A stretch of DNA of 64,000 bases from Nitrosopumilus sp. (GTDB lineage: Archaea; Thermoproteota; Nitrososphaeria; Nitrososphaerales; Nitrosopumilaceae), in contig OZ244732.1 in NCBI GenBank assembly GCA_965219345.1, positions 768,001 to 832,000 on the forward strand, read 5' to 3'. A program made the translations under genes and the position numbers. The notes under the pieces were generated by a model. The model made no database searches. It was not told the origin of the DNA and saw only the letters and a program-made list of their open reading frames with translations. This document shows positions 19,825-40,532 of this stretch, piece by piece; position 1 is the stretch's first letter, and the number at the start of each line of letters is the position of its first letter.

Positions 19825-19903
19825 TACACTGTAACATCTTCGAGGGTTTTCATCGATTTCAAATTGCTGTTACATTCGAGGGCCGGGGTGTTACGTTAGA
19901 GGG
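19825..19903 (+). repeat. ~75 bp dispersed repeat, copy 1
   Basis: TACACTGTAACATCTTCGAGGGTTTTCATCGATTTCAAATTGCTGTTACATTCGAGGGCCGGGGTGTTACGTTAGAGGG. Confidence 0.95.
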
Positions 19904-19949
19904 GATTCTGTGTAACCTTCGACAGGTGAAATATGAATTTTATTCAAAA

Positions 19950-20025
19950 TGGAGGCAGAAGGATTTGAACCTTCGAACCCCCAGTTACGAATCCGGGTGC
20001 CTTATCCAAGCTAGACTGTGCCCCC
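19950..20025 (-). tRNA. Non-canonical tRNA-like gene (C8, 8-nt anticodon loop AUUCGUAA; CGU or UCG ambiguous)
   Basis: Reverse complement GGGGGCA-CA-GTCT-AGCTTGGATA-AGGC-A-CCCGG-ATTCGTAA-CTGGG-GGTTC-GAAGG-TTCAAAT-CCTTC-TGCCTCC-A; all four stems pair. Confidence 0.75.
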
Positions 20026-20032
20026 AAAATTG

Positions 20033-20089
20033 AAAAAAACCCCCCATTTTCGTAAACAGACAATGATGCATTACATTGTCCAATGGGGG
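20033..20089 (-). terminator. Hairpin plus T-tract immediately upstream of the tRNA-like gene
   Basis: Nested stems CCCCCATT/AATGGGGG and GACAATG/CATTGTC followed by a T7 run on the minus strand. Confidence 0.45.
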
Positions 20090-20237
20090 CTTGTTTATCC
20101 TAACCGAGGATCGACAAGGAAGAATAGACTTCATTGTTAATTGAAAAAAATCCTATAAAAATTTTAATGTCAATGTTTGCTCAGTGAGGCATTCTGAATA
20201 ATGGTCTTCCACTTGTTCTTACCATCAACATCAACCA

Positions 20238-20588
20238 TTGAAGCTTGAGCTGGAGTCTTGCCTTTCAATGCACGGCAAAAAACGAATTGAGAAAAGAAGT
20301 AAAGAGGATGCATTGAGTATTTTGACTGAGGGTTATATGGTAATGGAGAGAGGGATAAAGCTGTTTGATCAGATTAGTAAAAAGAAACTGTCAGTCATCA
20401 CGGAGGGAAACAACACCGAATACATCAAAAAGGCCATAGAACTACTCGCCGGAGAATGCACCGATCGGGTAGATGTGATTGATGGTGCTGAGGGTAGCAC
20501 GGAAATCAATCAACTAAAAACATTGTTTAAGTTTTTCAAGAAAGTCCCACATGACAACAAGGTTCTTTTTGTATGGGTTGTGAGGTGA
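20238..20588 (+). CDS. Hypothetical protein
   Basis: 116 aa ORF, no recognisable motif; start uncertain. Confidence 0.45.
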   Translation: MKLELESCLSMHGKKRIEKRSKEDALSILTEGYMVMERGIKLFDQISKKKLSVITEGNNTEYIKKAIELLAGECTDRVDVIDGAEGSTEINQLKTLFKFFKKVPHDNKVLFVWVVR

Positions 20589-20687
20589 ATATAACTTCAA
20601 TGGAAAGCGATGAAAAAACACATGCATACAAGTTTGAAAAAAACGATTCTAACACAATTGCTACAAAGGGGATTGAGAATAATTTTG

Positions 20688-21590
20688 GGTGATTATCAAT
20701 CATTCACCACCAGTACATAATCAGGCAATAATGAGAAAGTGTCCTCATCTCTATTGTTGTATCTCCATTCCCTCTCCTTGATGTACAACAGAAACTTTTC
20801 AGAGCCAACACCGTGATGCTTGCCGTTCTCTCTTTTGCAAAACTCCAAAAACCTTCAGTTCCGTTGATGCAGGCATCGCCTTTTCCAAACATCCTACTGT
20901 GATTAGCTGACAGATGACGATAACCATGAAACATCAATGAGTCATAACCTTCCCACTTGTCTGTATACGCAATGCTTCCTTTCCTTACTTTCTTGATGGT
21001 TCCAGCAAGAAGTGTCCTGGCTTTCACATTTGTGACAATCTCAACGTGAACCCTTCCCTTTCTCTCTAGAATTCCAAATACAATTGCCTCGTTTTTGGCA
21101 CCACGTCCACGATCTCCCTTCCCTTTGCCTCCAAAATACGCGCCTCATCAGCCCCAATTTTGCCCTTTGGTTTTTGTCTGACTTCAAGATGGCATGACAT
21201 GGAAAGCGTATACAATCAGATGCATTTAGTGCAGTAGGATAACTGACATCTGCCTCTCTTGCTGCACGTCTTGCACTAATCCCAGGATCAAAGAGTCTGA
21301 TTAGAATCAACCATTTTGTAAAACCAACATTGACTGTATCCAACCATGTTCCACCAAACGGCCTGTAATCTATTTTACAATCTTCGCATCTTAATTTTCC
21401 TCTTAATATGATGTAATACTTTTTGGAACCACATGAGGTACAACGAACTGTATTTTTCTTTTGGAATTCCTTACAGGGAAATTCCAATGCAGTTGATTTG
21501 TTGTAAATTATTTTGGATAATTCAATCAAGTTGATTGCTTTTCCCAATAATTGTGTGAAATCAGTTGGCGGTAACAGGTTTACAATCACC
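20688..21590 (-). mobile_element. IS1595-family element with frameshifted transposase
   Basis: Zn ribbon CTSC..CEDC, YTD.W..Y..L, NH, ING.EGFWS split over ORFs 21041-21589 and 20704-21027; imperfect ~25 bp IR GGTGATT...ACC.CCA at both ends. Confidence 0.8.
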
Positions 21591-21632
21591 TATTGTTTTA
21601 TGACGCGTGATGATAATGATTAGCATTGTAAT

Positions 21633-22076
21633 CAGTACTTGGGAAAGTAACCAGCCAACATCTCCCAAATGGTATTCTGATTTACTTTTCTTAAAGAAAT
21701 CTACAACGATAATGCCAAAGATGCATTTGAGAATTTCAATTGTGATGATTGGATTTGCATGTGAGATGGAATAATTATTTCTTAACATACAATTTGCAAT
21801 TATCCATGCATTAAACAAAATCAACGGATAAAAAAAGTATAAAAATCTCATACTATGATTCCTACTGCAAGTTCTTGGTCTGAATTTTCTAACACATACA
21901 TAACCCGTTTCTATTCCACAACATGTAGAATTTTTAATGTGTGCAAAAGTAACATCATAATAATTCACATTTGATGGAGCAGTACACCCCCATCAAGCTT
22001 TTTCTATCATGATTATTCTATCAAATGATCAAAAATTGGTTTTTTAGGATAATTGGAGTTGCTTTCCCAAGTACTG
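21633..22076 (-). mobile_element. Internally deleted ISH3-family element (MITE-like, 444 bp)
   Basis: 18/19 bp IR CAGTACTTGGGAAAG(T/C)AAC; 5 bp TSD GTAAT both sides; transposase tail GIETGY...RPRT.SRNH..R..YF. Confidence 0.9.
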
Positions 22077-22202: not shown

Positions 22203-23342
22203 TTATTCAGGTAATAACTCAGGATATGCCACAAAGAGTTCATCCAGATATGGTTGTGGAAAATCATTATTTACAATATGCTGATAACGCATTTCATTTG
22301 GAAATGGTAATTGCAATAACCATGTAGCATAGTCATCCATATCAGGCGGATTGCCTTGCGGTGGTGTTGGATTGTATCCAAGATCTGGTCTGTTTTGATC
22401 TACCCATGTTTGATTGTAAACTGGTATTGGATCTGAAAGAGCAAAGTTAGAACGAATGTTTGCTAACATTGATTCATGGTATGTGTAATCATCTGCAGAC
22501 CAATTAGCTGTTTTAGTATCTGTATCATACATATCGGTCATACCATCATGTATGGCAATTGTTCTAGTAACACCAATTATATTTCCAGGTGAAATGTATA
22601 GTTCTGCTATCTGGTCACCAAATCTAGGTTGCTCTATTTTCATAGTGATGATTTCTTGTTGGGGACCTGTGTTGTCAAATTCATAAGGAATTACACCCTC
22701 ATTACGCAATACAGGTGGAGAAATATCCCATCGCTCTTGATGTGCTTCATTGACGTAACGCTGATCAAGTATTTTTACAAATGATGGAGAACGAATTAGA
22801 ATTTCATTTTTTAAACAAGATTCATGGTATTGTGCTGGATCAAATATTTCATCTGGATCTTCATATCCAGCATCAATATCAGGCATTACATAAGAATAAT
22901 CAATGATTATATCAAACTCTTCACCAACAGGCACTTGGCTTGGAGTATCAATCGTATATGTTGGTAAATTTGTTGGACATCCATAAGTCATGCTAGATGA
23001 AAATGATGAAGTTGAATTAGATACAATGCTAGATGAATGAGTAATTATTCGTTCATTAGATAATACAATAGAAATACCAGATTCATGAATTTCAGGAGTT
23101 ATAATTTCTTCAGACACATTATGTGGAATTATCTTCCAATTTAATTTGTCTGCGGTTCTTTCAGTAACACATGCAGGTTGTCCATTTGTACGAATGGTTA
23201 AAACCAGATTTTCTTTACAGATTACATTTTCAGGGGCAATTCCAGATTCTAATTGATGTTTAGGACTATCAATGGATGAAGAAAATGCCATAGAAGATGA
23301 TACAATAAAAAGTAGAGGTATCAAAAGCAATATTTTATTCAT
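22203..23342 (-). CDS. Secreted hypothetical protein with Nitrosopumilus-type N-terminal SP.KQ...G....V.C...PACV motif
   Basis: Signal peptide then SPKHQLESGIAPENVICKENLVL...PACV. Confidence 0.75.
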   Translation of the reverse strand: MNKILLLIPLLFIVSSSMAFSSSIDSPKHQLESGIAPENVICKENLVLTIRTNGQPACVTERTADKLNWKIIPHNVSEEIITPEIHESGISIVLSNERIITHSSSIVSNSTSSFSSSMTYGCPTNLPTYTIDTPSQVPVGEEFDIIIDYSYVMPDIDAGYEDPDEIFDPAQYHESCLKNEILIRSPSFVKILDQRYVNEAHQERWDISPPVLRNEGVIPYEFDNTGPQQEIITMKIEQPRFGDQIAELYISPGNIIGVTRTIAIHDGMTDMYDTDTKTANWSADDYTYHESMLANIRSNFALSDPIPVYNQTWVDQNRPDLGYNPTPPQGNPPDMDDYATWLLQLPFPNEMRYQHIVNNDFPQPYLDELFVAYPELLPE

Positions 23343-23418
23343 TTATGACTACATTCTATTGTTTTAAGTTAAAAAAAGTAACTATACTTTACGCTGTTCC
23401 AAATTCTGTACATTTGAG

Positions 23419-23495
23419 TACACTAACATCTTCGAGGGTTTTCATCGATTTCAGATTACTGTTACATTCGAGGGCTAGAGTGTTACGTTAGAGGG
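23419..23495 (+). repeat. ~75 bp dispersed repeat, copy 2 (2 nt deletion in first motif)
   Basis: TACACTAACATCTTCGAGGGTTTTCATCGATTTCAGATTACTGTTACATTCGAGGGCTAGAGTGTTACGTTAGAGGG. Confidence 0.95.
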
Positions 23496-23751
23496 CTAGT
23501 CTACAGCTAGCTCAAATGTGCCTTTTTTGCCGTCAATTATTATCTCGTCATTTTCCACAAATTGATGCTTTTCATACAACTGAGTCAGTATTATGCAGTC
23601 CTTGTTATTTACCTTCATGTCACAGGTTTTCCCCTTAAATTTCAGCTTGAAAATCTCATCTTTCGCAGGAAACTCATCCCTGATTGATTTTGGCAGGACC
23701 TACATACTTGTATTTGGCCTCACTTGCAGACAGATTCTTTACAAACTTCAA
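23496..23751 (-). pseudogene. Small frameshifted gene coupled to the REase stop (possible B3/AbrB-like DNA-binding fold)
   Basis: MKFVKNLSASEAKYKYVG, frameshift, DEFPAKDEIFKLKFKGK...GTFELAVD*; TTG overlaps REase TGA. Confidence 0.45.
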
Positions 23752-24460
23752 AGCACCTTCTCCCTGTTTGTGAAGCATGAATCAAGCTTGTCTGGCAGTA
23801 CCCTAAATCCTGTTCCATGATCATGAGGTCTTCCGTCTGGATATTGTCCAATTCTAATATCTACAAGAATTTTCCCATCTTTGAGTAGTTTGATGAAATT
23901 ATCAAAATCAACTCCGTGCATCATCCAAGCCTCATTGAAATGAAATTCTTCGTCTTTGCCACTTCCTCTACAATCTGCCTTGACATACAACAAGTTTCTA
24001 GGATACTTTCGATTAAATGCTTTTTCTAGTTCTTGTTTTTCCCAGTATGGACTAGGCATTGTACCACAATCAGAATGAGTAATCTCTACTATATTATCAT
24101 GAACATCTAATCTTGAATCCGTCTTTGCTATAAAGGGTGTTCTTTGATACTGCGTTTAGTGTTGTGTGTAGCTTTTTTCTGTCATTTTTTGAAGGGCGGC
24201 CAAACTTTTTGCAATAGTTTTGTGTTAACTTTTTCAGGCATTGGTGATTTTGTAAACAATGTAAACATATTAGAAGATCCTTTTCTTGCTGACTTTAGTT
24301 CTGTTTGGTGTCCGTTTGGCCCTGCAATGTTATTTTCCTCAATTCCTAGCAAGTCCTCTAATGTCTTGCCGATACCTGTGTTTCCGCCTCTATGGGTTTT
24401 GATGAATCCTTGGTTTTCTATTTTCTTTAGATCATCTACGAGTTCACTGTATTTTTTCAC
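23748..24460 (-). pseudogene. MvaI/BcnI-family restriction endonuclease, frameshifted
   Basis: GNTGIGKTLEDLLGIEENN, ELKS.R, TLFTK.P and C-terminal HDHGTGFR split across two ORFs. Confidence 0.85.
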
Positions 24461-24567
24461 AAATCGAATCTGTATTGCATGATAATAACAATTTCCTAAC
24501 AATGTCTATAAAGATGGAAGTTTATCTCTACAATTGTCATCTAGTGATTAAAACAATCATTGTGTTG

Positions 24568-24873
24568 CTATTGTAAACCAATCTCTACAGGCATTATGTT
24601 CTTGACCAATTCTGATTTTATTTTTGTTTTTTCAACAACTTCAAACATTTTTTTTATGTCGGATGGCACATTAACCTCTAAAACCTTACAGTCTTGTTTT
24701 TCTTTATGTTTCAAGTATTCATGTGCAAAAGATCGACTTATTGATCTTATGCCAGTGAAATCCAATAACACTTGATCCTTATTTTCAAAATCCTCTGCCT
24801 TGAATATGTTTGAAACCATATTTCGTAGGGATAAATCTTCAGAGACTCTATCCTTTAACAGTAATATGATCAT
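24568..24873 (-). CDS. STAS-like (DUF4325-type) protein
   Basis: VLLDFTGIRSISRSFAHE motif. Confidence 0.8.
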   Translation of the reverse strand: MIILLLKDRVSEDLSLRNMVSNIFKAEDFENKDQVLLDFTGIRSISRSFAHEYLKHKEKQDCKVLEVNVPSDIKKMFEVVEKTKIKSELVKNIMPVEIGLQ

Positions 24874-24915
24874 TTGTTATCTATCCTATAGAATATAATC
24901 ATATTATAAAATACT

Positions 24916-25704
24916 TTATTCAACATAATCATAAATATTGATTGTAGGCGTCCCTTTTGGGATTCTAACTGTGATTAATGTTCCACTTAAACCCCCAGTA
25001 TCAGTCAATCTGTATAAATTATCTGCATCACTATCAATGTGAACTGCTCCATTTCCAGATACAATAAAAAATTTAGCATTAAGCCCTTTTGTAAACAAAT
25101 TAAGCGAAGTTCTTAAACCAAATCCTCGATCTTCGTCTTTAGTTGAAACACCGTTTAATGCTTCACGTATTGCATAACTCGCTTCGTGATTGAAACCTTT
25201 TTCTTTGAAAGTTTGTGGTATGGTTATTCCATTATCATAAAAAGATAGATCAATGAAATCTTTGCGATCATAACGCTGTCCCATGATTAATACTCTAGTG
25301 AATTGTGAATGTTGGTATATGTTATCCACTAATTCACTGACAACATACTTGAATGCTGATTCTCCACCAAAATCATGAGGATTTCTTTGCATATCAAATA
25401 TTTTCTTCAGATGCAACTCTACATCATCATAATTGGAAGGCAATTCTACAATTGGAGTGTAGGTCTTATTGAAATTGGATGATGATGAATTTATTATCGT
25501 GTTAATGTAATTTGCAACTGGATAATTCGTAGGTTCAATATATTTATCCCTATTTTCGATAATCAATTCACTTAATGGAAGAAGGGTAGTAGGATGGATG
25601 AAATATATTGCACTTAAATCTAATTTGTCATCTTTGTCAAAATTGCATTTATGGTTGATGTATTCAATATACTCTGAAACTAAATTTGGATACTGAGCTG
25701 ACAT
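24916..25704 (-). CDS. GHKL/HATPase-domain protein (anti-sigma/kinase-like)
   Basis: SELVDNIYQHS (N box), YDNGITI (G1), GVSTK...RGFGL (G2), GTLI. Confidence 0.85.
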   Translation of the reverse strand: MSAQYPNLVSEYIEYINHKCNFDKDDKLDLSAIYFIHPTTLLPLSELIIENRDKYIEPTNYPVANYINTIINSSSSNFNKTYTPIVELPSNYDDVELHLKKIFDMQRNPHDFGGESAFKYVVSELVDNIYQHSQFTRVLIMGQRYDRKDFIDLSFYDNGITIPQTFKEKGFNHEASYAIREALNGVSTKDEDRGFGLRTSLNLFTKGLNAKFFIVSGNGAVHIDSDADNLYRLTDTGGLSGTLITVRIPKGTPTINIYDYVE

Positions 25705-25753
25705 CTTCTATGTTTGTGATGTTTTCCAATATATAATGATCAATAATTTCAAT

Positions 25754-27073
25754 TCAATACCTCATAAGAATTACACTTTCCCGCGTCATCGTATCGCCTG
25801 TATCTTTTGATATGTTCTCTGGTGCATTCTTTGATGGCATTGCCTTGTTTGGTATGCCTCTTTGGATTATCTTGTCAACCTTGAATCCGTACTTGCCCCC
25901 CAATTCCATAGTGATCAGGTCAGTTGGCATTACAACACGTCTCACTGTTCTGTTTGCAACTACAAAACAACAATGACTATTTTTTGGTACTAGATTATGT
26001 GATATTTCATCGAGACATTTATCAAGATCATAAAAGAACGAATAAACTGCTTCTGCTCTGCATGGTTTTTTGTTCTTTGTTAGCTCAATGTCGTTTTTTC
26101 TAACCTTGTCTAATGTATTATTCAATATTTCAGAACCCAAGTCATTACCTATTTTGTATCTTCCACCCAAACCTACTTTGTCAACTGCCAAAGCCTGTTC
26201 TTCTGGCAGTTCAAGCCAGAGACTAGAGTGTTTTGAGAACTGGCCATAAGCTACAGTAGTTCCATGATCACCATAAGGAGGAGAAGTAACAACAAGATGA
26301 TCTTTTTTGTCTTGCAATATATCATCATCAATCTTTGAGAAATTTTCCGTAATGTCTCGTGAATCTCCAAGCAATACGTGAGACTGCCCTTTGGGCATTG
26401 CATTAATCATATCGTTCATCTTGCTTATGTTGTCTTGTGCGATTTGTCTGAAAATTTCTATTGGTTTTGGATTGAATGCCACTCTATCAGAATCTGACAT
26501 TTTGTGAATCTTCCAAGCACCATTACGCTGATAGCTTGACTTTCTAATTGTCAATGAAAGGCATATCTTGAAAAAATCTCTTACATCTTTGTCTCTGATC
26601 TGAAATATATTATGTTTTAGAATGGCAAGTGTCTTTGTCGTATCTGGCTTATACCAATTATCAAGATCTAGTTTATCTGGCAAACACTCTGAATGATAAT
26701 CAGAATCAAGATAGTCTCTTGCAGAATTGCTCAATATTTTCTTTAGTGCCTTGTTTAGGTCTTTGTGTATCGGTGTTGTCTTGACCTTTGATAGTAAAAC
26801 AGCAAACGGGTTTATGTCAATTTCGACAGCTTGGTTTCCGTGTAATATAGATTCTAGCAACACACCGCCAGAACCCATGAAGGGGTCAAAGACTACGTCT
26901 GTTTTGTTCTTGGCATACTTTGCGATAACTCGTTTTGCAATCTCTGGATGTATCCTTGCAGGATAAAGATACAAAGCATGTGTGTAATTTTTTGTACTTT
27001 TATCTAAAAAAGTCCATTCTGTTTTTTGCAATTGCTTGTTGTACAGATATTCAGTATTTGTGATTTGTGCCAT
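25754..27073 (-). CDS. N4-cytosine-type DNA methyltransferase, MvaI-like cognate MTase
   Basis: YPA, DPFMGSG (motif I), DINP, TSPPYG (motif IV); same strand as the MvaI-like REase. Confidence 0.85.
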   Translation of the reverse strand: MAQITNTEYLYNKQLQKTEWTFLDKSTKNYTHALYLYPARIHPEIAKRVIAKYAKNKTDVVFDPFMGSGGVLLESILHGNQAVEIDINPFAVLLSKVKTTPIHKDLNKALKKILSNSARDYLDSDYHSECLPDKLDLDNWYKPDTTKTLAILKHNIFQIRDKDVRDFFKICLSLTIRKSSYQRNGAWKIHKMSDSDRVAFNPKPIEIFRQIAQDNISKMNDMINAMPKGQSHVLLGDSRDITENFSKIDDDILQDKKDHLVVTSPPYGDHGTTVAYGQFSKHSSLWLELPEEQALAVDKVGLGGRYKIGNDLGSEILNNTLDKVRKNDIELTKNKKPCRAEAVYSFFYDLDKCLDEISHNLVPKNSHCCFVVANRTVRRVVMPTDLITMELGGKYGFKVDKIIQRGIPNKAMPSKNAPENISKDTGDTMTRESVILMRY

Positions 27074-27280
27074 AATGCGATCACCTATTTTTTGACTGGC
27101 TTTACGTTGATTAGGTTCTGTCAACTTAACGGGTGTCAGGCACAAATCTTCTGCCTGTCAAAACTCGGGACACATGGTTAGGTAATATGTCAAATTTTCT
27201 CGATAAATTGCCATATGATCAGCGATCTAAAGCAAAAGATCGGATGTACGTTTATTATCAAAATCAAGGAGGCTCAAATC

Positions 27281-27739
27281 ATGATTAAAACTAAATCCAT
27301 TTACAAGCCAGTTGAAGAAGAAGATGGACTTCGAGTCTTAATTACAAGATGGTATCCAAGAGGTGTTAAAAGAGACAAATATGATATTTGGGTACGAGAA
27401 TTAGCTCCAAGTCCAGAACTTTTAAAAAAATATAAAAATTCTGAAATTAAATGGAATGATTTTACAATATCTTTATTGTCAGAATTACGAGATAGTATTG
27501 ATAGTATTGAAGCTATACATGCACTACAAACACAAAGTCATATGCAAAATGTAACTCTGCTTTGTTATGAAAAGGATGGGGAACCATGTCATAGACACAT
27601 GGTTAGAGATTTGATTGAAGCACCATCATTGTTACCATCATTGTTACAATCATCGTTTGAACCTATACACACTGATCACCATGAATTTACTCCTATGCAG
27701 GAACATGTTCCCGACGAGGAGTGTCTTGTCGTACCCTGA
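27281..27739 (+). CDS. DUF488 family protein
   Basis: DG.RVLITR.YPRG, LAPS..L, TLLCYE...PCHR; AAGGAGG upstream. Confidence 0.85.
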   Translation: MIKTKSIYKPVEEEDGLRVLITRWYPRGVKRDKYDIWVRELAPSPELLKKYKNSEIKWNDFTISLLSELRDSIDSIEAIHALQTQSHMQNVTLLCYEKDGEPCHRHMVRDLIEAPSLLPSLLQSSFEPIHTDHHEFTPMQEHVPDEECLVVP

Positions 27740-28060
27740 ATCATTTATGTGTAATCCTTCAAGAATTACTTCTTTTTTCCAAGGATATTTTCTAATACCT
27801 TCATATATTCCCCATTCTAAAATTTGTTGATCATGAGGATTTTTTGATTTACAACTTGAGCATCTATATTTCATACGTGGTTGAACATCATAATTATGAA
27901 TAGTTAGAAAAGGTTCTTCACTAAAGAGATTTTTTTGAACTGTTACTTCTTGTTCATTCCTTTTTACAAATCTAGTACTGCATTCTTGAGGTTTGATAAA
28001 TCCTAAACTTTTATTGTCTGCATAAATATGATGCTTCTGGATTATTTCAACAAACCAAAG
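27650..28060 (-). pseudogene. 5'-truncated hypothetical protein (YRC..C..H...LEW motif)
   Basis: Plausible protein tail; upstream part abuts a transposase remnant on the opposite strand. Confidence 0.5.
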
Positions 28061-28061
28061 A

Positions 28062-28448
28062 AATTGCAGGAACAAAACCCAAAGTGATAATCACAGACGG
28101 TTTACATTCTTATGCAAGGCATACCGTAAGGAGTTTTGGACACAAGAAAGAAGATACAGAACATTACACATTAAACATATTCATCTTAAAGGTGATATGA
28201 ATAACAATAAACAGGAACGATTTAACGGTGAATTTCGTGACCGTGAGAAGGTAATGCGTGGAATAAAGAAAACAGATTCAGCAATGTTTGATGGATATCA
28301 AATCTATCACAACTATGTACGCCCACATATGGGATTAAATGGTAAAACTCCTGCCGAGGTTTGTGGCATTGATGTTAAAGGAATTAACAAATGGCTTACA
28401 TTGATACAAAATGCAAGTAAGAATGATTATACAAAATCTGTGTTCTAA
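28062..28448 (+). pseudogene. IS6-like DDE transposase C-terminal remnant
   Basis: PKVIITDGL.SY, NN..ERFNG..R.R, YHNY.RPH..L.GKTPAE, NKW.TLIQNA; second tail (NKWKTIIQNAS) near 28900; IS6-like IR GGCTCTGTTGCAAG ending 28998. Confidence 0.75.
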
Positions 28449-28457
28449 ATAATTAAT

Positions 28458-28745
28458 TTATTTTTTAAGAACTGCAAGACCTAATGCAATTCCTCCTAAT
28501 ACTCCACCACCGATAATCAAAGCTTTTCCTAAATCACTTTTCCATACATGCTTTGCAAATTCTGTGACAGATTCGTATGGATCATGTTCATCATAGTGTG
28601 TTGCACAATTTCCAGTTTTGGAATCGCATTCTGCATGTAAATGACCATTTCTGAAATGAACTTTGTCCAGTTTTTCTCCTACTGATGGTTTCCAATTAAG
28701 ATTATTTTGATAATCTTCAATCCTCATATTCCTATAAGGAAACAC
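28458..28745 (-). CDS. Hypothetical protein with C-terminal TM helix
   Basis: 95 aa ORF, His-rich core, GGGVLGGIALG tail. Confidence 0.55.
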   Translation of the reverse strand: MFPYRNMRIEDYQNNLNWKPSVGEKLDKVHFRNGHLHAECDSKTGNCATHYDEHDPYESVTEFAKHVWKSDLGKALIIGGGVLGGIALGLAVLKK

Positions 28746-31506: not shown

Positions 31507-31976
31507 CGTCACTTGTAAATATAAAAAAAATAAATCTTTCAATCTGTGTGCTGGAATATACTTTCAATTTTCTTCAAGAATATGGACACGAGCATTTAGA
31601 GGCTCACGCCATTTGGGTGGGAAAGAAAACAGGCATAGTGTTTGACGTATTGGACGTGTGGTTTCCAGCTCAGATTAACAGTGCCACATCATATGAGGTC
31701 CCAGAGGAGGAAGAATTCAAGATTAATGTAGAGCTAAACAGACAAAAGTTAATCGCAATCGCCCAGATCCATACCCACCCCGATTCTGCATTCCATAGTA
31801 GCATTGATGACGAAGGTTCTGAACTAGTCCTTCCTGGTTCGCTCAGCATTGTAATACCGAACTTTGGTTTTATAAAACAAGATGATCTTTCATTATGGAA
31901 AGTATACCGGTACACAGGAAAATCTTGGGAACAACTATCTGACCAGGAAGTAGTTAAAATATGTCACCTGATTTAA
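31503..31976 (+). CDS. JAB/JAMM metalloprotease (BilC-like deubiquitinase)
   Basis: E...QIHTHP..AFHS..DD JAMM motif; SIVIP.FG. Confidence 0.9.
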   Translation: MTSLVNIKKINLSICVLEYTFNFLQEYGHEHLEAHAIWVGKKTGIVFDVLDVWFPAQINSATSYEVPEEEEFKINVELNRQKLIAIAQIHTHPDSAFHSSIDDEGSELVLPGSLSIVIPNFGFIKQDDLSLWKVYRYTGKSWEQLSDQEVVKICHLI

Positions 31977-33484
31977 ACTTCAACGATCAGTCAGTTCAGA
32001 AAAATCTTTCTGCAATGTCTACAATAATTGGACAAAATAACGATCTGGTTTTTCGTAAACGATTAGATTCCTACAAAGTACGTGTTATTCTTCAAGACTC
32101 TGTAAAGAACAACGAAAATTTACGTAATGCATGTTCTGCATCGCTCAACTTGTTGCCCAGGCTTTTACGCAACGTGAGCTACTCAGGCACTTTAGACATT
32201 ATGAAGTCTTTCCCACAGTCCCATGTCTCAAAAATCATTATTGGAGACGGTGATGATCCATCAACCACATTGATTTTTGGAAGGGAACCCATGTCTGTAA
32301 AAAATCCGCTATATGTTAGTTCAGCAGGTTGGAGCTGCTATCTTTCAAGGGAAACCCCCTGTCCATGGACGGCAAAGGAATACAACAGTTTGTCTTCAAT
32401 GTTTGCAGGCTCTCTTGCCGTTGGGGAAATCTTCAAAGATCTGGTTCCTGAAATTCCTTCCAAAAAAATCAGTACTTTAGAATATGATTTGATAACGCAT
32501 GGCACTACTCAGCAACCTCTACTCCAGCCCAAAATTCCAGAAATAATTCACCTTGACGATTTATTGCTGGTAGGATGCGGCGCAATCGGCCAAGCATTTT
32601 GTTATGCACTCATGACAGCATCAAAGCTAAGCGGAAGAATAGGGCTTGTCGATAACGACAAACTTGAAAAGTCAAATGAACAGAGATATTTTTGCGCTTT
32701 TGAGGAAAGTAGAGGATATCTCAAGTCAGTGTTCTTGGCAAGATTTCTCAAAGCAGGTAATCCCGCACTATCTACAACACACATACCTATGAAATATGAA
32801 GATTATGCTAATGGTCTTTCGTGCAGCTCCGCACCAGAAGAGGCTGTTTCCGCGGTAGATAATGTTTGGACCAGACTGAACATACAGGCAGGAATGCCGA
32901 AGATACTTTGGAATGGGTGGACTGACGTTGACACGGGGACTTTGCGGTACGGAATTGGCAAGCATTCAATCCTAGGAAAATATGCATGTCTGGGATGCTC
33001 ATATTATCCAAGCGGGACATCCCCTTCACAAATGGACCTAAATGAACTGTTGACTGGATTTGCTAGGAAAGAAATTAAACAAAAATTACGGCAAAACGCA
33101 ATCTGCACTCCCCAAGACATCCAATCGGTCGCTTCCAAGACAGGTATCCCGATTGAGCAACTTCTACCTAATGTTGGCAAGCCCTTCAAAGATCTCTTGC
33201 ATGGAAATTGTGGCGTTTTCACATTGAGGTCTCTTGGACATGATGCTGTAGCACCCACTCCGCATGTTCCTGTTTTATGTGGAATTTTATTGGCAACCCA
33301 AGTAATACTAGAACACCTTGAGCTTCCATCAAACACAGTAAAAGTTAATTCATCAGCAGATTTTGATGCACTCGGCATTCCTAACAGGGATTGCATAACA
33401 AATATGCAAAAAAATCCAGAATGTTTTTGTGGTGATTCTGTCTACCAAAACGCATACAAGGATAAATGGGGTTGTCTGGATTAG
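31961..33484 (+). CDS. ThiF/E1-like Ubl-activating enzyme (BilD-like)
   Basis: Inactive-adenylation-like N-half; VGCGAIG, D.D..E.SN..RY, SAVDN...R, CLGC and C.C Zn sites, inserted domain ending HGNCG. Confidence 0.88.
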   Translation: MSPDLNFNDQSVQKNLSAMSTIIGQNNDLVFRKRLDSYKVRVILQDSVKNNENLRNACSASLNLLPRLLRNVSYSGTLDIMKSFPQSHVSKIIIGDGDDPSTTLIFGREPMSVKNPLYVSSAGWSCYLSRETPCPWTAKEYNSLSSMFAGSLAVGEIFKDLVPEIPSKKISTLEYDLITHGTTQQPLLQPKIPEIIHLDDLLLVGCGAIGQAFCYALMTASKLSGRIGLVDNDKLEKSNEQRYFCAFEESRGYLKSVFLARFLKAGNPALSTTHIPMKYEDYANGLSCSSAPEEAVSAVDNVWTRLNIQAGMPKILWNGWTDVDTGTLRYGIGKHSILGKYACLGCSYYPSGTSPSQMDLNELLTGFARKEIKQKLRQNAICTPQDIQSVASKTGIPIEQLLPNVGKPFKDLLHGNCGVFTLRSLGHDAVAPTPHVPVLCGILLATQVILEHLELPSNTVKVNSSADFDALGIPNRDCITNMQKNPECFCGDSVYQNAYKDKWGCLD

Positions 33485-34094: not shown

Positions 34095-34257
34095 CTGGCT
34101 ATTGGCTTACCAAACATAAGTTTGAGAACCGTAGAATCTCTTACATCAAACTCTGCTATCTTGGTTTTTGGATCCCATGCTGTGTTTCCTAACCTGACTA
34201 GTTTATCTGATTAATTTCATCACTCAAGGTTTGGATCAGAACATTTTGTATCATTCC

Positions 34258-35121
34258 ATGAGTAGAAACTGGAAAAAATACAACCAAACACTAGTAAGAA
34301 GAGGTGAAATCATGCTGTCTTTTGACGCAATAGACTCATGGACAAAAGAACTCAAAGAAATGAACCGTGGAAAAGAAGGACACCAGTATGTTTATCCTGA
34401 ATCATTCATGGAAGCACTGGGATACTGCCATGCATATCTGCATCTTCCATATAGACAAACTGAAGGTCTGATAAAATCACATCTCAAATCCAAGACAGAA
34501 ACACCAACATATTCTGCCATCTGGAAAAGAGTAAACAAGCTTGACATCAAGATGAGCCCAAAGCTGGGAAAAGACATTGTCATTGCAATAGATAGTTCAG
34601 GAATCAAGGTTGCAGACAGGGGTGAGTGGATGAGACAGAAATGGCAGAAAAGAAGAGGATTTCTCAAGATTCATGTGGCAGCAGATGTAAAATCAAAACA
34701 GATTACAGGTTTGGAAATTACAGATGATCATTCCCATGATTCCAAATCTTTTGTATCACTAGTTGAGCAGTCAAAGCAATTTGGAAATGTGACTAAGACA
34801 CTAGCTGATGGTGCATATGACACAAAAGATAATTTTTCATATTTGTACCATGGTAACATAATTCCAGGAATCAAGACAAGAAAGAACTCATCAGTTACTA
34901 CTGATTGCTATCCAAGAAGAAAGGCAGTACTGGCCCAAATTTTCAATTATGATTTGTGGAAGAACAGCGTAAGCTATGGCGATAGGTGGATCGTAGAAGG
35001 AGTGTTTTCTGCATTCAAAAGAATGTTTGGAGAGCATGTCACATCGCACAGGAGAGAAAACATGATTCATGAGTTGAAAATGAAGGTCTGTCTGTACAAC
35101 AAGATGATTGTAATACAGTAG
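34258..35121 (+). CDS. IS5-family (IS903-like) transposase, apparently intact
   Basis: NW..YN..LV.RG, LPYRQTEG, IDSSGIK...GEW, KIHVA.D, ADGAYD, RW.VE..FS..KR.FG. Confidence 0.92.
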   Translation: MSRNWKKYNQTLVRRGEIMLSFDAIDSWTKELKEMNRGKEGHQYVYPESFMEALGYCHAYLHLPYRQTEGLIKSHLKSKTETPTYSAIWKRVNKLDIKMSPKLGKDIVIAIDSSGIKVADRGEWMRQKWQKRRGFLKIHVAADVKSKQITGLEITDDHSHDSKSFVSLVEQSKQFGNVTKTLADGAYDTKDNFSYLYHGNIIPGIKTRKNSSVTTDCYPRRKAVLAQIFNYDLWKNSVSYGDRWIVEGVFSAFKRMFGEHVTSHRRENMIHELKMKVCLYNKMIVIQ

Positions 35122-35162
35122 AAAAATCAAAATTGTTTCAAATGGTTAGATGGTGTTAATGA

Positions 35163-35381
35163 TTAGTTGGTGTTGGGAAACAAAGCAGGATCCCATATAC
35201 TTTTCTCAAGAAGTCTTAATGGTTCATCGTTTTCGTTATAAGAATCCTGAAGTATTTGCAACATCACCTTGTCATGTATGCTGTTGATTGTTGGTTCGGC
35301 ATTTGCATCAAATTTGATCCACATTTGAACCTTATCGAGTTCTTTTACTGTATTAACTGGTACTTTTTCATCTCCTGCCAT
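35163..35381 (-). CDS. Small hypothetical protein downstream of the SocA-like gene
   Basis: 72 aa ORF overlapping the end of 35345-35815. Confidence 0.4.
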   Translation of the reverse strand: MAGDEKVPVNTVKELDKVQMWIKFDANAEPTINSIHDKVMLQILQDSYNENDEPLRLLEKSIWDPALFPNTN

Positions 35382-35815
35382 ATCTTTTGTACCTGCGATT
35401 CAGTGAAATTTTTTCGTTTTGCTACTACCCAACCTATGATAGTTTTATCACCAACGCCATACCCATGCACTTTCTTTAGATAGTGCAATGAGGCAGCAAT
35501 TTCTAGATCATCTATGTTCTTGTTGTTAATGAATTTTAGAAATTTTTCAAAATTCTTCTTATCATCACTCTTCTTGAGTTCGATGTCATCGGGTATCTGA
35601 TCATAGTTTTCTAGGCTGAACGCGTTGTGTGCAAGTAAAGAGCAGTAAGGTCCACGTAAATACCATGAAAAATCATATCCCAAATATACACCACACGACT
35701 GTAAGAGATATACCAATTTCTGGAGCTTAAGCCGTTCATCAAATTCGTCCATTGAAAAATTGTAGTCTTTTATTTGTTTGAGAATGAATCCAAGCTCCAC
35801 TGACTCACGATTCAT
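35345..35815 (-). CDS. YwgA/SocA(Panacea)-like putative antitoxin
   Basis: LQKLVYLLQ..G..LGY.F.WY..GPY and LE..ASL.YL motifs. Confidence 0.6.
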   Translation of the reverse strand: MNRESVELGFILKQIKDYNFSMDEFDERLKLQKLVYLLQSCGVYLGYDFSWYLRGPYCSLLAHNAFSLENYDQIPDDIELKKSDDKKNFEKFLKFINNKNIDDLEIAASLHYLKKVHGYGVGDKTIIGWVVAKRKNFTESQVQKIWQEMKKYQLIQ

Positions 35816-35860
35816 TGGTCAAATTACCGACCACTGCCTTTTAAATTTTGCATATTCAGT

Positions 35861-37094
35861 AGTCTGTTGCACAACCACGCCTAAAACCTGACTGATGCCA
35901 ACAATTTTTACCATTGGGACAAACATTGGTGCGCCAAAAGACACTTGGATCAGGAACCTGCCAACCATACACAGTGGCATCCACAGACAACGCAAAGTAC
36001 GTGGAGCGTGGCAGGATGCTTGCCATGCACCAGGATCCGGGGTGGGAGCAGGAGCTGAAATCTGCAAATTGCCGCAAGAACGGGGCGCCGTTTCTGTATG
36101 CAGAGTCCCTGTTTGTATCAATTGCCATCATAAGATCCATGGCGCAGATACCCTACAGGCAGCTACGAGCATGGTATCAGAGATGATGCCCGGCGTTCCA
36201 ATGCCGGATCACGCCACCATGTTCAGGAGAATTCGTGGTCTCAGCGTCCAGGCCATGGGCAGCATGGTTGCCGTTACTGCAAGGGACGGCACCAGGCATG
36301 TTCTATGCAGTAGATACAACAGGCATCAAGGTGGCCAACAGGGGGGAGTGGATAAATAAAAAGTGGAAGGTCAGGCGCGGGTTTATTAAGATGCACGCGC
36401 TGGTAGACACCGACACGGGGCTGATCCTCTCGCTGAAGATCACAGACGGCTCTGTGGGGGATTCCAAGACGTTTGTCCCCATGCTGAACCAGGTACTTGG
36501 TACGGCAGGATCAGGACACAGCAGCAACAACAGCAAGCTGAACCAGGCGGAGCTTGGTACGGCAGGATCAGGACAACAGGATGCAGCCAAAGGTGCAGAT
36601 GCCGAGGCGGCCGCCGTCCCCAAAGGCATCTCGATCCTGGGGGACGGCGCATATGCATCACGAAATATCCACAAGGAGTGCAAGAACCGCGGCATCACGC
36701 CCCACTCATCCGGCTTGGGATCAACTCCACTGCACGCGGCAAGGGATCCGGCGATGCGTGGGGGCTGGCAGTGCGGGATCAGCTTGGAGGGTCGCCTGTC
36801 AGCCCCGTGGGAACGCTTACAAGCAAACAGAAAGAGGAGAACCAGAAAAAGTGGAAGAGTAGGGTGAGATACGGAAGGCGCTGGATAGTGGGGATCGTGT
36901 TTTCTGCCTTTAAGAGGATATTTGGCGAGTATGTGATGGCAGCAAAGCGGGAGAATATGATCCACAAGATCATGCTCAAGGTCGCCACGTACAACATGAT
37001 TACGTCAAGGGGAGGATGGGCCTGATGTAGCACGGCGTGAACCTGCACTGCAAGGTGTCACCAAGCCATGGGTGTGGAGGTTGTGCAACAGACT
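35861..37094 (+). mobile_element. IS5-family element with frameshifted, GC-rich transposase
   Basis: Perfect 16 bp IR AGTCTGTTGCACAACC; VDTTGIK..RGEW, GDGAY, RW.V..VFSA.KR.FG split over several frames. Confidence 0.9.
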
Positions 37095-37137
37095 AAATAA
37101 AAGATATATTATTTAGCTGCTACAACAACAAAAGTCT

Positions 37138-38421
37138 GTGATCTCAGAAATTTTTTTACATGTTGGGCTCCCCAAAACTGCAACTTCAAGCATCCAAGCT
37201 ACATTGTTTTCAAGAAAAAATTCACAGTTTTTAGAAGACAACGACTGCCTTTATCCAAAATATTTGCGTGCAAATCACTCCGGACTCTACAGCAATTTTT
37301 GTAACCATCCAGAAAAACGGGCTATAAATATAAGACGCGGGTATGATAGCGAGAAAATTAAAAAAGAAAGTGAAAAATATTTGCACAATTTTGAAAGAGA
37401 CATTAAAAAAACCGCATGCTCTAAGCTAATTATTTCCAACGAAGCTATTTCAGTTTTGACAATGGATAATTTATTAAATTTACGAGATTATCTTTTATCA
37501 ACATGTGGCAAACAAGTTAAATTTAACATTATAATATCTGTTAGAAATCCAATTTCACTATTAACGAGTGAGATCCAGCAAAAGGTCAAAGATGGCAGCA
37601 GCACTGAACAAGTAGCATTAAAAATTATGATGAAAAAAAGTCACAGTCTGTTTCAGGAAAGAATCGAAAAGTTTACAAAAGTATTTGGAAGTGAATCAGT
37701 AAAGGTCTACAGTTTTGAAGAAGCAGTTAAACATGAATTTGGCCCTGTTGGTTATTTCTTAGCTTTTACACTAAATGTAAATAATAATAATAATAATGAA
37801 ATTAGTAGACTTTACTATAAAGTATCTAATGTAGGATTATCAATGTTTTCAGTAAAATTTCTGTCATACGTAAATATGAAAATGCCTCTAATAATAGATG
37901 GAAAGCCACAGAAAAATAGATCTTTGGGTGATACTGAAGCACTTTTTAACGTATGTGGGGGGGGGGGAAGAGAAGAGACGCGTGTGTGTCCTAAATATGA
38001 CATTTCTTATACTGATAAGACGACAATAATTGAAAACAGTCGTCATGATGTTGACTGGCTAAGAAAAAATTATGGAATAGACTATTCATCCCCAAAGCTT
38101 TTTAGCAAAAATCAAAATAACACTGGGATTACAGAAAAAACTATTCATGATTTAAAAAATGCATTTCCAAATCTGTCACGTCCTCTCAGACTTTTATTGA
38201 TAGAATTCTTACAACTATGTTCGGATTCTGTAGATAATGATGAAAAAAACAGAACATCCATCTTGAATCTAATTCATGATCTGAAAAAATACAGAGTTAG
38301 CTGGAAAATAATTCATAAAATAGATTTTGAAAAAACAGGTTTAAAGATAATATCAAAAATTCTACCAGAGTCTGCAACAGATAAAATGGTTGCTTTTTAT
38401 GTGAGTAAGATTAGAGCATGA
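37138..38421 (+). CDS. Sulfotransferase-like P-loop protein
   Basis: LHVGLPKTATSSIQ, IISNE, VRNP...S..QQ; contains G11 and (AAT)6 tracts. Confidence 0.7.
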   Translation: MISEIFLHVGLPKTATSSIQATLFSRKNSQFLEDNDCLYPKYLRANHSGLYSNFCNHPEKRAINIRRGYDSEKIKKESEKYLHNFERDIKKTACSKLIISNEAISVLTMDNLLNLRDYLLSTCGKQVKFNIIISVRNPISLLTSEIQQKVKDGSSTEQVALKIMMKKSHSLFQERIEKFTKVFGSESVKVYSFEEAVKHEFGPVGYFLAFTLNVNNNNNNEISRLYYKVSNVGLSMFSVKFLSYVNMKMPLIIDGKPQKNRSLGDTEALFNVCGGGGREETRVCPKYDISYTDKTTIIENSRHDVDWLRKNYGIDYSSPKLFSKNQNNTGITEKTIHDLKNAFPNLSRPLRLLLIEFLQLCSDSVDNDEKNRTSILNLIHDLKKYRVSWKIIHKIDFEKTGLKIISKILPESATDKMVAFYVSKIRA

Positions 38422-38443
38422 CAGTACAAAACTTGCGGATGTA

Positions 38444-38828
38444 ATGAAGGATACTTCGGAATACCTGGACAAACCCACGGTAAATGAAATTGTGGCAGTT
38501 TATGCGGGCAAAGGATACGACAGCATACCAATTCGTGAACGCCTAAAAAATAAAAACGTCAGCGCACGTATTCCATTTCGAAAGAATGGTGAATCACCAG
38601 GAATCAAACCATGCAAGAAATACAATTCGGTTCGTTATGCTGCGGAGGGATTCTTTGCATGGTTGAAGAACGGATTTTGCAGGACCAGAATCAGTTCAGT
38701 TCAGATCAGTTCAGAATCAGATCAGAACCAGATCAGAACCAGATATGAAAAGAATTGTGACAACTATCTTGGATTTGTTTATCCGGCATCAACTGTAATG
38801 TATTGGAGGGTGGTATTGGAATGAGTTC
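38444..38828 (+). pseudogene. IS5-family transposase C-terminal remnant with short tandem repeats
   Basis: YA.KGYDS..IR..L, R...E.FFAWLK...R..RYEK...NYLGFV; CAGATCAG/AACCAG repeat expansion at ~38683-38745. Confidence 0.8.
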
Positions 38829-38902
38829 ACTGTAACATCTTCGAGGGTTTTCATCGATTTCAAATTACTGTTACGTTCGAGGGCCGGGGTGTTACGTTAG
38901 GG
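38828..38902 (+). repeat. ~75 bp dispersed repeat, copy 3
   Basis: CACTGTAACATCTTCGAGGGTTTTCATCGATTTCAAATTACTGTTACGTTCGAGGGCCGGGGTGTTACGTTAGGG. Confidence 0.95.
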
Positions 38903-38938
38903 CACTAAGTTTGTATGGGATAGATTTGTGATAAATTT

Positions 38939-39244
38939 ATGAATTTTCAAGAATTTTGGAGAAGATTATCTGTAGAGTTAAAGACCAATAAAAAATTCAA
39001 GACTTTGAAACGTTCAAAACCTTTTGAAGCCTATGCAGACATTAATACCATAACTGTTATACCCAACTCAAACAAACCAAGACCAGTCCCGATCAAAGAA
39101 TTCCAAAAAATGTGGGAGATCATGAAAAATCACATCAGGAGTGAGAGATACGTCAATACCAATAGGCGATATTCTTCATCTCATAATTCATCATACATCA
39201 GCGCGTTAATCGATCATGTTGTATCTGATCATAACATGGAATAG
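38939..39244 (+). CDS. Hypothetical basic protein
   Basis: 101 aa ORF; FKTL...KPF, NSSYI.ALI. Confidence 0.6.
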   Translation: MNFQEFWRRLSVELKTNKKFKTLKRSKPFEAYADINTITVIPNSNKPRPVPIKEFQKMWEIMKNHIRSERYVNTNRRYSSSHNSSYISALIDHVVSDHNME

Positions 39245-39259
39245 TCAGCAAGCCAGTTT

Positions 39260-40440
39260 TGACCATCACCACAGATGAATTAATCATAAAGACAGCACAT
39301 GAAAAAAGACAGGAGTTAAAGAAGAGTTATGAGAATGAAAAGTCTGATGTAAATCCACTTGTATTGATATAATTGCCTGATTCACGTAAGGGAATATCAG
39401 ATAGAAAAGATCAAGTAATCAGACTTTTGGATTCAAGATTCGGAACAAATACAAACAATGGCAAGCTTGCAACCCATCCTTCAGGCAAAGATAATCACAT
39501 AAAACGAAAACATGAAAAGACCCATCTTAGTGCAGAGTTTCGCAAGATTTTCTCTAATGTTGCAAACAGGCAACATATCATAGATAAAATTTCATTGAAC
39601 GTTCCACAGTTAGAACGGAAATTAATACCTGATGCAGAGATTGTAGAATTGGACAAGAACCAAAGCCTTCAGGGAACTTTACTCATCGGACAATCAGATG
39701 CTATGAATCTACAAAACAGGTTTGATTCGTTTGCAAGAGAAATGACAGAACCTTTTGCAAAAGAATATTCCCGCGGAATTATCAGACGATGCATTCATCA
39801 GCTCTTTGAGAAAAACACCAAAGTAACCGATCTTATGGACACGGCAAACATAACACTGTCTCCAAAAAACAAAGATCATTTTATCAGGACAATATCTGAA
39901 TCAAAATCTCAATTTGCCCGAGATGTTGCTGAAAAAATCAACCGTGAAACAGAAGATATTCTAAAATGGAATGTTCCAAAGTACAGAGTACGCCAAGTCT
40001 ATGACAAAAAAGACTACAAAAAAATGCATAGTATCACCAGCTTATATCAAAACAGATAATACAAAACGAAATCCGATTTATGGATTTCCTTGAAGAAGAA
40101 AATAAAGTAAGGCGGTGGTTTAAAAACGAGGTAAATGACAAGAAATACTTTGCCATAAAATATGATGATCCTGAAACTGGGGAACCTCATGCATTTTACG
40201 TTGACTTTGTTATTTGTATGACGGATAGAAGAATCGGATTGTTTGACACAAAAGCAGGATTTACAGCTAAAATTACCAAGCCAAAAGCTGAAGCATTGTC
40301 AGGATATCTCAGAGACAATAAATCAAAGAAGGTTTTTGGCGGTATTGCAGTATTTGAAAATGGCGAATGGCTGTACAATGGCAATGAGGAAACATGTATT
40401 TGATGACAAGGATTTTTCAGACTGGAGGCCTCTTGTTTTA
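39260..40440 (+). pseudogene. Type III restriction Res subunit, fragmented C-terminal part
   Basis: NPLVLI*LP (internal stop), WFKN, FAI.Y, FYVDF...GLFDTK PD-(D/E)xK region; frameshifts. Confidence 0.75.
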
Positions 40441-40454
40441 TCCCGAGTTTTCTG

Positions 40455-40532
40455 GCCCCCACGTAACAGTTTAGCCCTCGAATGTAACAGTAATCTGAAA
40501 TCGATAAAAACCCCCGAAGATGTTACAGTGTA
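40455..40532 (-). repeat. ~75 bp dispersed repeat, copy 4 (inverted)
   Basis: Reverse complement TACACTGTAACATCTTCGGGGGTTTTTATCGATTTCAGATTACTGTTACATTCGAGGGCTAAACTGTTACGTGGGGGC. Confidence 0.95.

Follow-up and report, generated by a model that had tools for sequence, protein, structure and literature searches.

The stretch analysed here, the window, is 64,000 nucleotides (nt) of DNA from the archaeon Nitrosopumilus sp. (assembly GCA_965219345.1, contig OZ244732.1, positions 768,001 to 832,000), and it contains an island of defence genes and insertion sequences (ISs) in which a repeat of 78–80 nt is present in four copies, c1 to c4, at 19825(+), 23419(+), 38826(+) and 40455–40532(−). We judge it moderately probable that Nitrosopumilus-like archaea have a family of non-autonomous DDE transposons, here named F1, of which this repeat forms the long end; the family would resemble miniature inverted-repeat transposable elements (MITEs) or mobile insertion cassettes and be mobilised in trans. 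In the proposed architecture, an F1 element would be bounded by inverted termini of the form TACACTGT[AT].., each with one motif TGTWAC..TTCGAGGG, and the long end would add two or three direct copies of this motif, spaced 21–22 nt apart. Judged from their sequence, the extra motifs are candidate transposase-binding sites.

Structure of the repeat

The four copies were recovered by direct reading and by an unguided repeat search. The search returned a direct family (19827–19899, 23419–23491 and 38828–38900, with 89–100% identity) and three inverted pairs, in which each plus-strand copy is matched to 40455–40532 with 86–94% complementarity; for c3 with c4 this value is 86% along 76 nt, and terminal inverted repeats are present. 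Pairwise identity is 70/73 for c1 and c3 (the best for c1), 64/73 for c2 and c4, and 61/73 for c1 and c4, the second-lowest of the six window pairs. An nhmmer profile was built on the four window copies and on three copies from metagenome-assembled genomes (MAGs), and its matches to these seven are by construction; the window copies scored E 5e-26 to 6e-24, and the next match in the 64 kb had an E of only 1.1, so that there is no fifth full copy.

Alignment of the copies places a sharp outer edge at TACACTG; on the inner side, the copies end unevenly, at about +76 to +92. At the outer edge, copies c1 and c4 read aaTACACTGTAACA and tcTACACTGTAACA, respectively, and carry TACACTG exactly, the terminus of c2 is 2 nt shorter (TACAC--TAACA), and c3 starts with TTCACTG. 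All seven long copies (four in the window and three in the MAGs) share a common sharp terminus next to unrelated flanks.

Within the repeat, the motif TGTWAC..TTCGAGGG recurs as phased sub-motifs. The pattern TGTWACNTTNGAGGG, allowed at most two mismatches, had seven matches, compared with a mean of 2.16 in 100 shuffles, none of which reached seven, and all seven are inside copies (c1 at 19868, 19889 and 19911; c2 at 23460 and 23481; c3 at 38869; c4 at 40475–40489); a mis-spaced pattern, TGTWACNNNNNGRGGG, matched 0 times. The terminal sub-motif of c1 at 19830, TGTAACATCTTCGAGGG, was read directly from the sequence and is missed by the pattern because its inner spacer is 3 nt. The sub-motifs of c1 start at 19830, 19868, 19889 and 19911, which gives spacings of 38, 21 and 22 nt. 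Copies c3 and c4 have a degenerate third sub-motif, and a fourth is present only in c1. The long copies in the window fold no better than shuffled sequences (z = −0.10, −0.21, 0.01 and −0.99), and Rfam gives only three tRNAs; a structured RNA was therefore rejected as an explanation.

Two further members of the family are found in the window, a short end that abuts c2 and a degenerate mini-element (Table 1); 23389–23416 and 29369–29396 form an inverted pair in which 25 of 28 positions match. These results largely bear out a first-pass annotation of the same DNA, which had described four copies of about 75 bp at these positions, with the outer two inverted and both reading TA-[sequence] (c1 and c4 both read TACACTGTAACA). 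Its count of four family sites holds for the full copies but missed the members at 23390–23418 and 29341–29395, and its assignment of three sub-motifs to every copy holds for the spacing and for the fourth sub-motif of c1, but not for the degenerate third one in c3 and c4.

Copies c3 and c4 form an inverted pair that spans 1,707 bp. A 101 aa open reading frame (ORF) in its interior (38939–39244) belongs to no known family; c3 is the only copy in the window that is followed shortly by an ORF start. The remainder holds a type III restriction Res pseudogene (39268–40443, plus strand), in which residues 221–298, 408–584 and 596–723 of a 724 aa relative can be mapped, with frameshifts, and the first 220 residues and residues 299–407 are missing. 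The pseudogene is about 83–88% identical to 724 aa relatives, and relatives of about 723 aa are 85% identical to its 228 aa ORF. Pfam and NCBIfam revealed no transposase in the interior. On its outer side, c3 adjoins a fragment of an IS427-like element, whose right inverted repeat, GTATTGGAATGAGTTC (38813–38828), agrees by eye in 12 of 16 positions with GTTTTGAGATGACTTC of a complete IS in one of the MAG loci. The place of the first TA(C) of c3 is taken by this inverted repeat, so that what now flanks c3 is secondary, the product of a later IS insertion.

Related copies in other genomes

A pattern specific to the long end, TGTWACNTTNGAGGGNNNNNNTGTWACNTNNGRG, was scanned against 185,579 species genomes and found at three or more other loci (L001, L002 and L003), in two Nitrosopumilus-type MAGs; L001 and L002 share one contig, and L003 is from a Nitrosopumilus MAG. 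The three MAG copies begin with TACACTGTT and are identical to the window copies in 55–61 of 73 positions. All three sites, like the window region, are rich in defence and IS genes.

These loci also contain mini-elements of about 78 nt with inverted TACACTGTT termini (L001:9386–9462, L002:8668–8747 and L002:9872–9950) and solo short ends (L002:9785–9810 and L002:5604–5649). The one mini-element that was folded, L002:9872–9950, forms a hairpin (z = −4.15) that none of 200 shuffles matched. Two larger units have two ends each, one of 692 bp at L001:9386–10077 and one of 1,282 bp, with F1 termini in inverted orientation, at L002:8668–9949. Neither contains a transposase by Pfam or NCBIfam, and both hold small ORFs of no known family. 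No cargo is shared among eight end-adjacent segments (0 tblastx matches at E ≤ 0.01).

One presence/absence polymorphism was found. L002 and L003 have a common flank, ..ctgaagaaattattgc[ag]tctgaaatttt, which at L003 is directly followed by the long end (..gcatctgaaatttt on the flank side of the junction, TACACTGTTACA on the other). At L002, the same flank is followed by the 1,282 bp unit, by gaaatttt again and then by the long end, which makes L002 the filled and L003 the empty state of a matching site. The 8 bp direct repeat gaaatttt thus flanks the unit on both sides (L002:8660–8667 and 9950–9957). In this one case, the two loci differ as they would after an insertion that made an 8 bp duplication and landed right beside a resident end.

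The inverted ends of a sister family, F3, are 84 nt long and start with GTTCTGTTACGTCTTCGG (L003:714–797 and 2659–2742); the unit that they bound (L003:714–2742) contains two ORFs, one of 254 aa and one of 158 aa (membrane-like by eye), neither of which is a transposase. A third F3 end, which is solo, is located 2 kb away at L003:4818–4901. A different kind of repeat is present at L001:15419–19363, where a unit of about 2 kb occurs three times with the same palindromic 30-mer at 15419, 17419 and 19314; one of these units holds a pentapeptide-repeat ORF (15964–17022).

These observations suggest how F1 might behave. Internal deletion would give rise to hairpin mini-elements of about 55–80 nt, pairs of ends can bracket 0.5–1.6 kb of unrelated DNA without a transposase, and movement would depend on an IS4/IS5-type transposase that is supplied in trans and makes an 8 bp duplication, which may be the rule for the family. 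The five sites in the window (four long ends, one of them with an abutting short end, and one mini-element) would be relics, which accumulated and were then rearranged in a junkyard of defence genes and IS elements between pgi/tRNA and a large putative surface-protein gene, with other IS elements inserting later at their borders.

Comparison with known systems

MITEs and mobile insertion cassettes have IS-derived inverted ends, enclose passenger DNA or lack it, and are mobilised in trans; examples are the IS231-derived cassettes of Bacillus cereus and the MITEs of Sulfolobus. F1 resembles them in its inverted termini, its lack of a transposase, its hairpin-like mini forms and its end pairs around unrelated passenger DNA, as well as in terminal bases that are common with a co-resident IS and in the presence/absence polymorphism with a direct repeat. 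It differs in its long end type, which comprises 80–100 nt with three to four phased direct motifs, in that no identically ended parent IS came to light, in that a target duplication was seen only once, and in that the passenger in the window is a decayed restriction gene rather than an intact module.

Among IS elements, the IS5 family is similar in several respects. The terminal core of F1, CTG[TG]T.AAT..T, is alike, an 8 bp duplication is seen both at an IS5-family element of the window and at the one filled F1 site, and the two occupy the same islands. The window element (34178–35187) has inverted repeats TGCTGTGTTTCCTAAC, which match in 14 of 16 positions, and a perfect 8 bp target duplication, GGATCCCA. 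Its insertion is therefore probably recent, and it shows that insertion of an IS5-type element in this genome can produce a duplication of 8 bp. In contrast, the long multi-motif end of F1 has no counterpart in this element or in the 1.12 kb IS described next, and no F1-ended copy encodes the enzyme.

In one of the MAGs, the 1.12 kb IS5-family element L002:11036–12159 encodes a 328 aa transposase that matches DDE_Tnp_1 and IS5_2, and it has 43 nt inverted repeats that begin with CTGTTAAATTCTGGTGATC. MITE derivatives of this IS, named F2 (ends GGTTCTGGTAAATTTTGGTGATC), are frequent in the MAG loci. A terminal core, CTG[TG][TA]N[ACG][AG]T[CT][TC]T, is common to F1, F2, F3 and this IS, and it is enriched in the MAG loci (observed and expected counts are 11 and 0.54 for L002, 11 and 1.04 for L003, and 5 and 1.1 for L001; those for the window are 8 and 3.6). 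Outside the core, the first 4 nt are not alike, with TACA in F1 versus GGTT or TG in the IS5-family elements; a hybrid copy at L002:5604 carries an F2 tip on the body of an F1 mini-element. On this basis, we propose with modest confidence that F1 may be mobilised in trans by an IS4/IS5-type (DDE_Tnp_1) enzyme. At L003:11035–11079, only two fused inverted repeats (about 45 nt) are found where L002 has the full 1.12 kb IS, which from its sequence looks like a MITE caught at birth.

Other transposases of the island were considered as the cognate enzyme and rejected. The first-pass annotation had noted that no cognate recombinase is evident in the island; the island is not devoid of recombinases and holds IS1595, IS481, IS630 and three IS5-family genes or fragments, although none of them has matching ends. 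The IS630 sequence is a 76-residue remnant, whose upstream 230 nt are unlike the repeat and contain no TACACTG-type sequence. The inverted repeats of the IS427-like element, 16/16 identical in the complete IS (L003:11923–12809), read GAAGTCATCTCAAAAC and are unrelated to the repeat; this complete IS is located 1.9 kb from the L003 copy, and the window fragment merely abuts and truncates c3. The IS1595 fragment between c1 and c2 is not surrounded by matching inverted repeats; ends of IS1595/IS1016 may read GGTTCTGTTGCA, on which this result does not rely.

Two more distant systems share single features with F1. As in IS630/Tc1-mariner elements with inverted repeat–direct repeat ends and a TA target, a TA is found beside a CA..TG-type terminus, each end has more than one candidate binding site, and an IS630 remnant is present in the island. 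However, the filled/empty pair shows 8 bp and not TA, the ends of F1 are asymmetric, and the DNA upstream of the remnant is unrelated. The TA, which stands beside CACTG in all copies except c3, is palindromic and may be counted as terminus sequence, and it is thus no evidence for or against a TA target. A TA target of Tc1/IS630 type, which the first-pass annotation had mentioned, is not supported, and the only filled/empty comparison gives an 8 bp duplication. The Tn7/Mu/Tn402/IS21 group is similar in that one end has several direct sites, spaced about 21–22 nt, and the opposite end has fewer, and such elements are reported often to carry defence cargo (PMC8649781). In contrast to this group, the tips of the repeat are TACACTG and not 5'-TG..CA-3', there is no 5 bp duplication, and the island contains no pair of rve transposase and ATPase, its only rve piece being the IS481-like fragment 28032–28445.

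Evidence against an F1 transposon family

Several observations count against the interpretation of the repeat as a transposon end. The five window sites all fall within 21 kb and are not dispersed as those of an active MITE family would be. An autonomous element, with a transposase between F1 ends, was found neither in the window nor in the three loci (52.8 kb), which leaves autonomy and family unproven, and the F1 ends and the inverted repeat of the candidate IS are alike over only about 12 nt. To our knowledge, multi-site asymmetric ends are atypical of IS5-derived MITEs. None of four F2 MITE copies has a target duplication, which weakens both the 8 bp rule and the analogy to IS5. By eye, a flanking direct repeat was found at one of ten end pairs and at none in the window (the pairs were c1–c4, c2–c4, c3–c4, 23390–29395, the L001 mini-element, L001:9386–10077, both L002 mini-elements, L002:8668–9810 and L002:8668–9949). 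For c3, the later IS insertion at its flank accounts for the lack of such a repeat. This single 8 bp case at L002:8668–9949 adjoins another F1 end and may stem from recombination and not from insertion; recombination between the duplicated 17-mers could interconvert the L002 and L003 states, and the duplicate itself still needs explaining. Finally, the scan pattern demanded sub-motifs 2 and 3, and their conservation in the MAG copies is therefore an effect of ascertainment and the three loci are a lower bound.

Alternative explanations

The repeats might instead be sites of site-specific recombination of the att, res or cassette type, where modules of the island would be stacked and shuffled by an integrase or resolvase whose gene lies elsewhere, with c1 to c3, in direct order, as junctions of modules integrated in tandem and c4 as an inversion product. 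Three copies in the same direction partition the island, each copy adjoins different DNA, and nine of the ten end pairs lack a target duplication by eye, all of which speaks for this reading. Phased direct motifs resemble arm-type or accessory sites, and an ORF of 245 aa with a Phage_integrase match is found at a distance of 5.7 kb from the copy in L002. For thaumarchaeal integrated elements, a survey describes integration in tandem at common att sites (PMC6563490). However, Pfam detected no tyrosine or serine recombinase among the 37 + 98 island ORFs that were scanned. No inverted core pair around a spacer was seen within the repeat, which consists of direct motifs, and the repeat does not overlap the adjacent tRNA. 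The terminal bases match an IS inverted repeat, and hairpin mini-elements and a duplicated 8 bp flank are transposon features that are unexpected for att sites. We therefore regard site-specific recombination as rather unlikely.

In a second alternative, the phased motifs would be iterons, or would serve an integrated plasmid-like element as centromere or operator, and a small ribbon-helix-helix or ParB-like protein, in place of a transposase, would bind to them. A spacing of 21–22 nt is typical of iterons. In L002 and L003, a conserved block of 47 aa, 117 aa and 156 aa ORFs starts within about 120 nt after the long end; the 47 aa ORF is ribbon-helix-helix-like by eye without a family match, and the 156 aa helix-turn-helix ORF has a weak ParB match (TIGR00180, E 0.006). 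None of the four window copies, nor the L001 copy, is followed by these genes, c3 alone in the window has any ORF start shortly behind it, and the sharp inverted termini and the mini-elements would be left unexplained, which makes this reading improbable.

Least probable of all, and in our view very doubtful, is the proposal of the first-pass annotation that one cargo transposon of about 20.7 kb, with c1 and c4 as its inverted ends, delivered the defence island as a whole, and that 17 kb and 1.7 kb units are nested in it as alternatives. The two copies are inverted, both read TACACTGTAACA, and lie at apparent island edges, no more than 166 nt from the pgi-like gene and 279 nt from the 1577 aa ORF, but they have no flanking duplication beyond the palindromic TA (ccgaaaaa versus gaataaag), agree in 61/73 positions compared with 70/73 for c1 and c3, and enclose a tRNA gene just inside c1 and a decayed mosaic (a split restriction endonuclease, a truncated Res gene, methyltransferase and DarG fragments, five transposase remnants and one intact IS), in which the flank of c3 was made by a later IS insertion. 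The position of the tRNA between c1 and the rest of the island makes c1 look like a solo insertion into the pgi/tRNA spacer. The single 20.7 kb unit is thus not supported, and the broader proposal of the same annotation, that the repeats are ends of a transposase-less mobile element with phased sites, is supported by the mini-elements and the filled/empty pair.

Setting and contents of the island

The left flank of the island consists of PALP, ThiF/MoeB-like and phosphoglucose-isomerase-like (pgi-like) genes, the last of which ends at 19659, and the right flank is a 1577 aa ORF without a Pfam match. For this ORF, a protein atlas provides a lead only: its nearest clusters are from Nitrososphaerota, and in one of them 12% of the members carry a SlaA-like family. 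The region between the flanks is a junkyard of defence genes and IS elements (Table 1), whose GC content ranges from 33% to 56%. It includes six transposase genes or fragments from four IS families (IS1595, IS481, IS630 and three of the IS5 family), and none of its IS elements has TACACTG ends. The segment 35890–37105 has 56% GC, compared with about 35% for the genome, and contains an IS5-family remnant, and it therefore looks like a foreign IS.

The tRNA gene next to c1 has unusual features. ARAGORN reports a 4-base anticodon, 'tcgt', and Infernal assigns it 39 bits, compared with 62–63 for the other two tRNAs, with an extra U before U33, which leaves CGU (Thr) as the anticodon; the gene might be a copy in decay or might encode an unusual tRNA. 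Adjoining the IS1595 fragment, a 19 nt inverted pair (21633–21651 and 22058–22076, 95%; CAGTACTTGGGAAAGTAAC) surrounds 444 bp and may represent another small inverted-repeat element. The Bil-type operon, here in an archaeal genome, encodes a DUF2604 ubiquitin-like protein, BilB (CEHH/E2-like), BilC (JAB) and BilD (E1/ThiF). Outside the island, the window contains a tandem duplication of about 363 nt (59736–60461, 95–98% identical) and a 62 nt inverted pair (84%) of 54884–54945 with 56102–56163, 1.2 kb apart.

Table 1. F1 sites and other features of the island, in window coordinates
Feature	Position	Strand	Remarks
c1, solo long end	19825–19926	+	TACACTG terminus and four sub-motifs; in the 290 nt gap from the pgi-like stop (19659) to the tRNA 3' end
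tRNA-Thr(CGU)-like gene	19949–20026	−	8-membered anticodon loop; between c1 and the rest of the island
IS1595-family transposase	20704–21589	−	split into two ORFs
379 aa ORF	22203–23342		signal-peptide-like N-terminus (by eye)
Short end	23390–23418	+	TACGCTGTTCCAAATTCTGTACATTTGAG; same family as c1–c4; abuts c2 directly
c2, long end	23419–23496	+	2 nt terminus deletion (TACAC--TAAC)
MvaI/BcnI endonuclease	23748–24502		split
HATPase/DUF4325 pair	24568–25704
Type II methyltransferase	25754–27145		intact
DUF488 protein	27215–27739
IS481-like fragment	28032–28445		138 aa, rve_3
Methyltransferase fragment	29068–29340
Mini-element, about 55 nt	29341–29395		degenerate; hairpin of two short ends, ATGCTGTTCAATTCGGGACAT ... 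ATGTCCAGAGTTTGGAACAGTGTA
IS630-family transposase remnant	30244–30471	−	residues 1–76 of a 333 aa relative; GC-rich
BilA–D-like ubiquitin-type defence operon	30756–33484	+	four genes
IS5-family IS	34178–35187	+	intact; 1,010 bp; 296 aa transposase
DarG-like fragment	35345–35815
IS5-family remnant	about 35890–37105		in 56% GC segment; inverted ends TAGTCTGTTGCACAACC
Sulfotransferase-like ORF	37138–38421		by eye; no family match
IS5-family (IS427-like) transposase fragment	38405–38828	+	5'-truncated; natural stop 38822–38824
c3, long end	38826–38905	+	first TA(C) replaced by the abutting right inverted repeat of the IS427-like fragment
c3–c4 interior	38906–40454	+	101 aa ORF and decayed type III restriction Res gene
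c4, long end	40455–40532	−	sole inverted long end; inner edge 12 nt past the last residue of the Res pseudogene; outer edge 279 nt upstream of the 1577 aa ORF

Novelty and implications

Searched by blastn in a mode for distant matches, the repeat has no match in phage and plasmid collections, and an origin from a phage or plasmid in either collection was rejected. The literature search found no work on MITEs in ammonia-oxidising archaea or Nitrosopumilus. A survey of the thaumarchaeal mobilome lists 13 IS families, with 0 occurrences of 'MITE' in its available text (PMC6563490), and the available part of a survey of archaeal IS elements does not describe the repeat (PMC13343696). The earlier view that the repeat is undescribed therefore stands, and MITE-like or transposase-less cassette elements appear not to have been described in ammonia-oxidising archaea. 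The comparison with other genomes, which had been recommended as a check, yielded at least three loci in two MAGs together with mini-elements, but no cognate transposase. As the evidence stands, F1 is an element of an ordinary kind whose host has been little studied.

A wider proposal is that F1 and its sister families serve marine ammonia-oxidising archaea as a system that shuttles cargo and is mobilised in trans. A transposase encoded at another site would recognise the long asymmetric ends by their phased binding sites, any two ends could capture and move the DNA between them, including whole defence modules, and insertions would be drawn to the borders of resident ends, building and reshuffling islands module by module; we consider this unlikely. 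The repeats mark rearrangement-prone borders in a variable defence region beside a putative surface-layer gene, and they can mislead the annotation of island limits. Should passenger DNA indeed be moved in trans by F1 ends, this would provide one route for the exchange and shuffling of defence genes in a streamlined marine archaeon.

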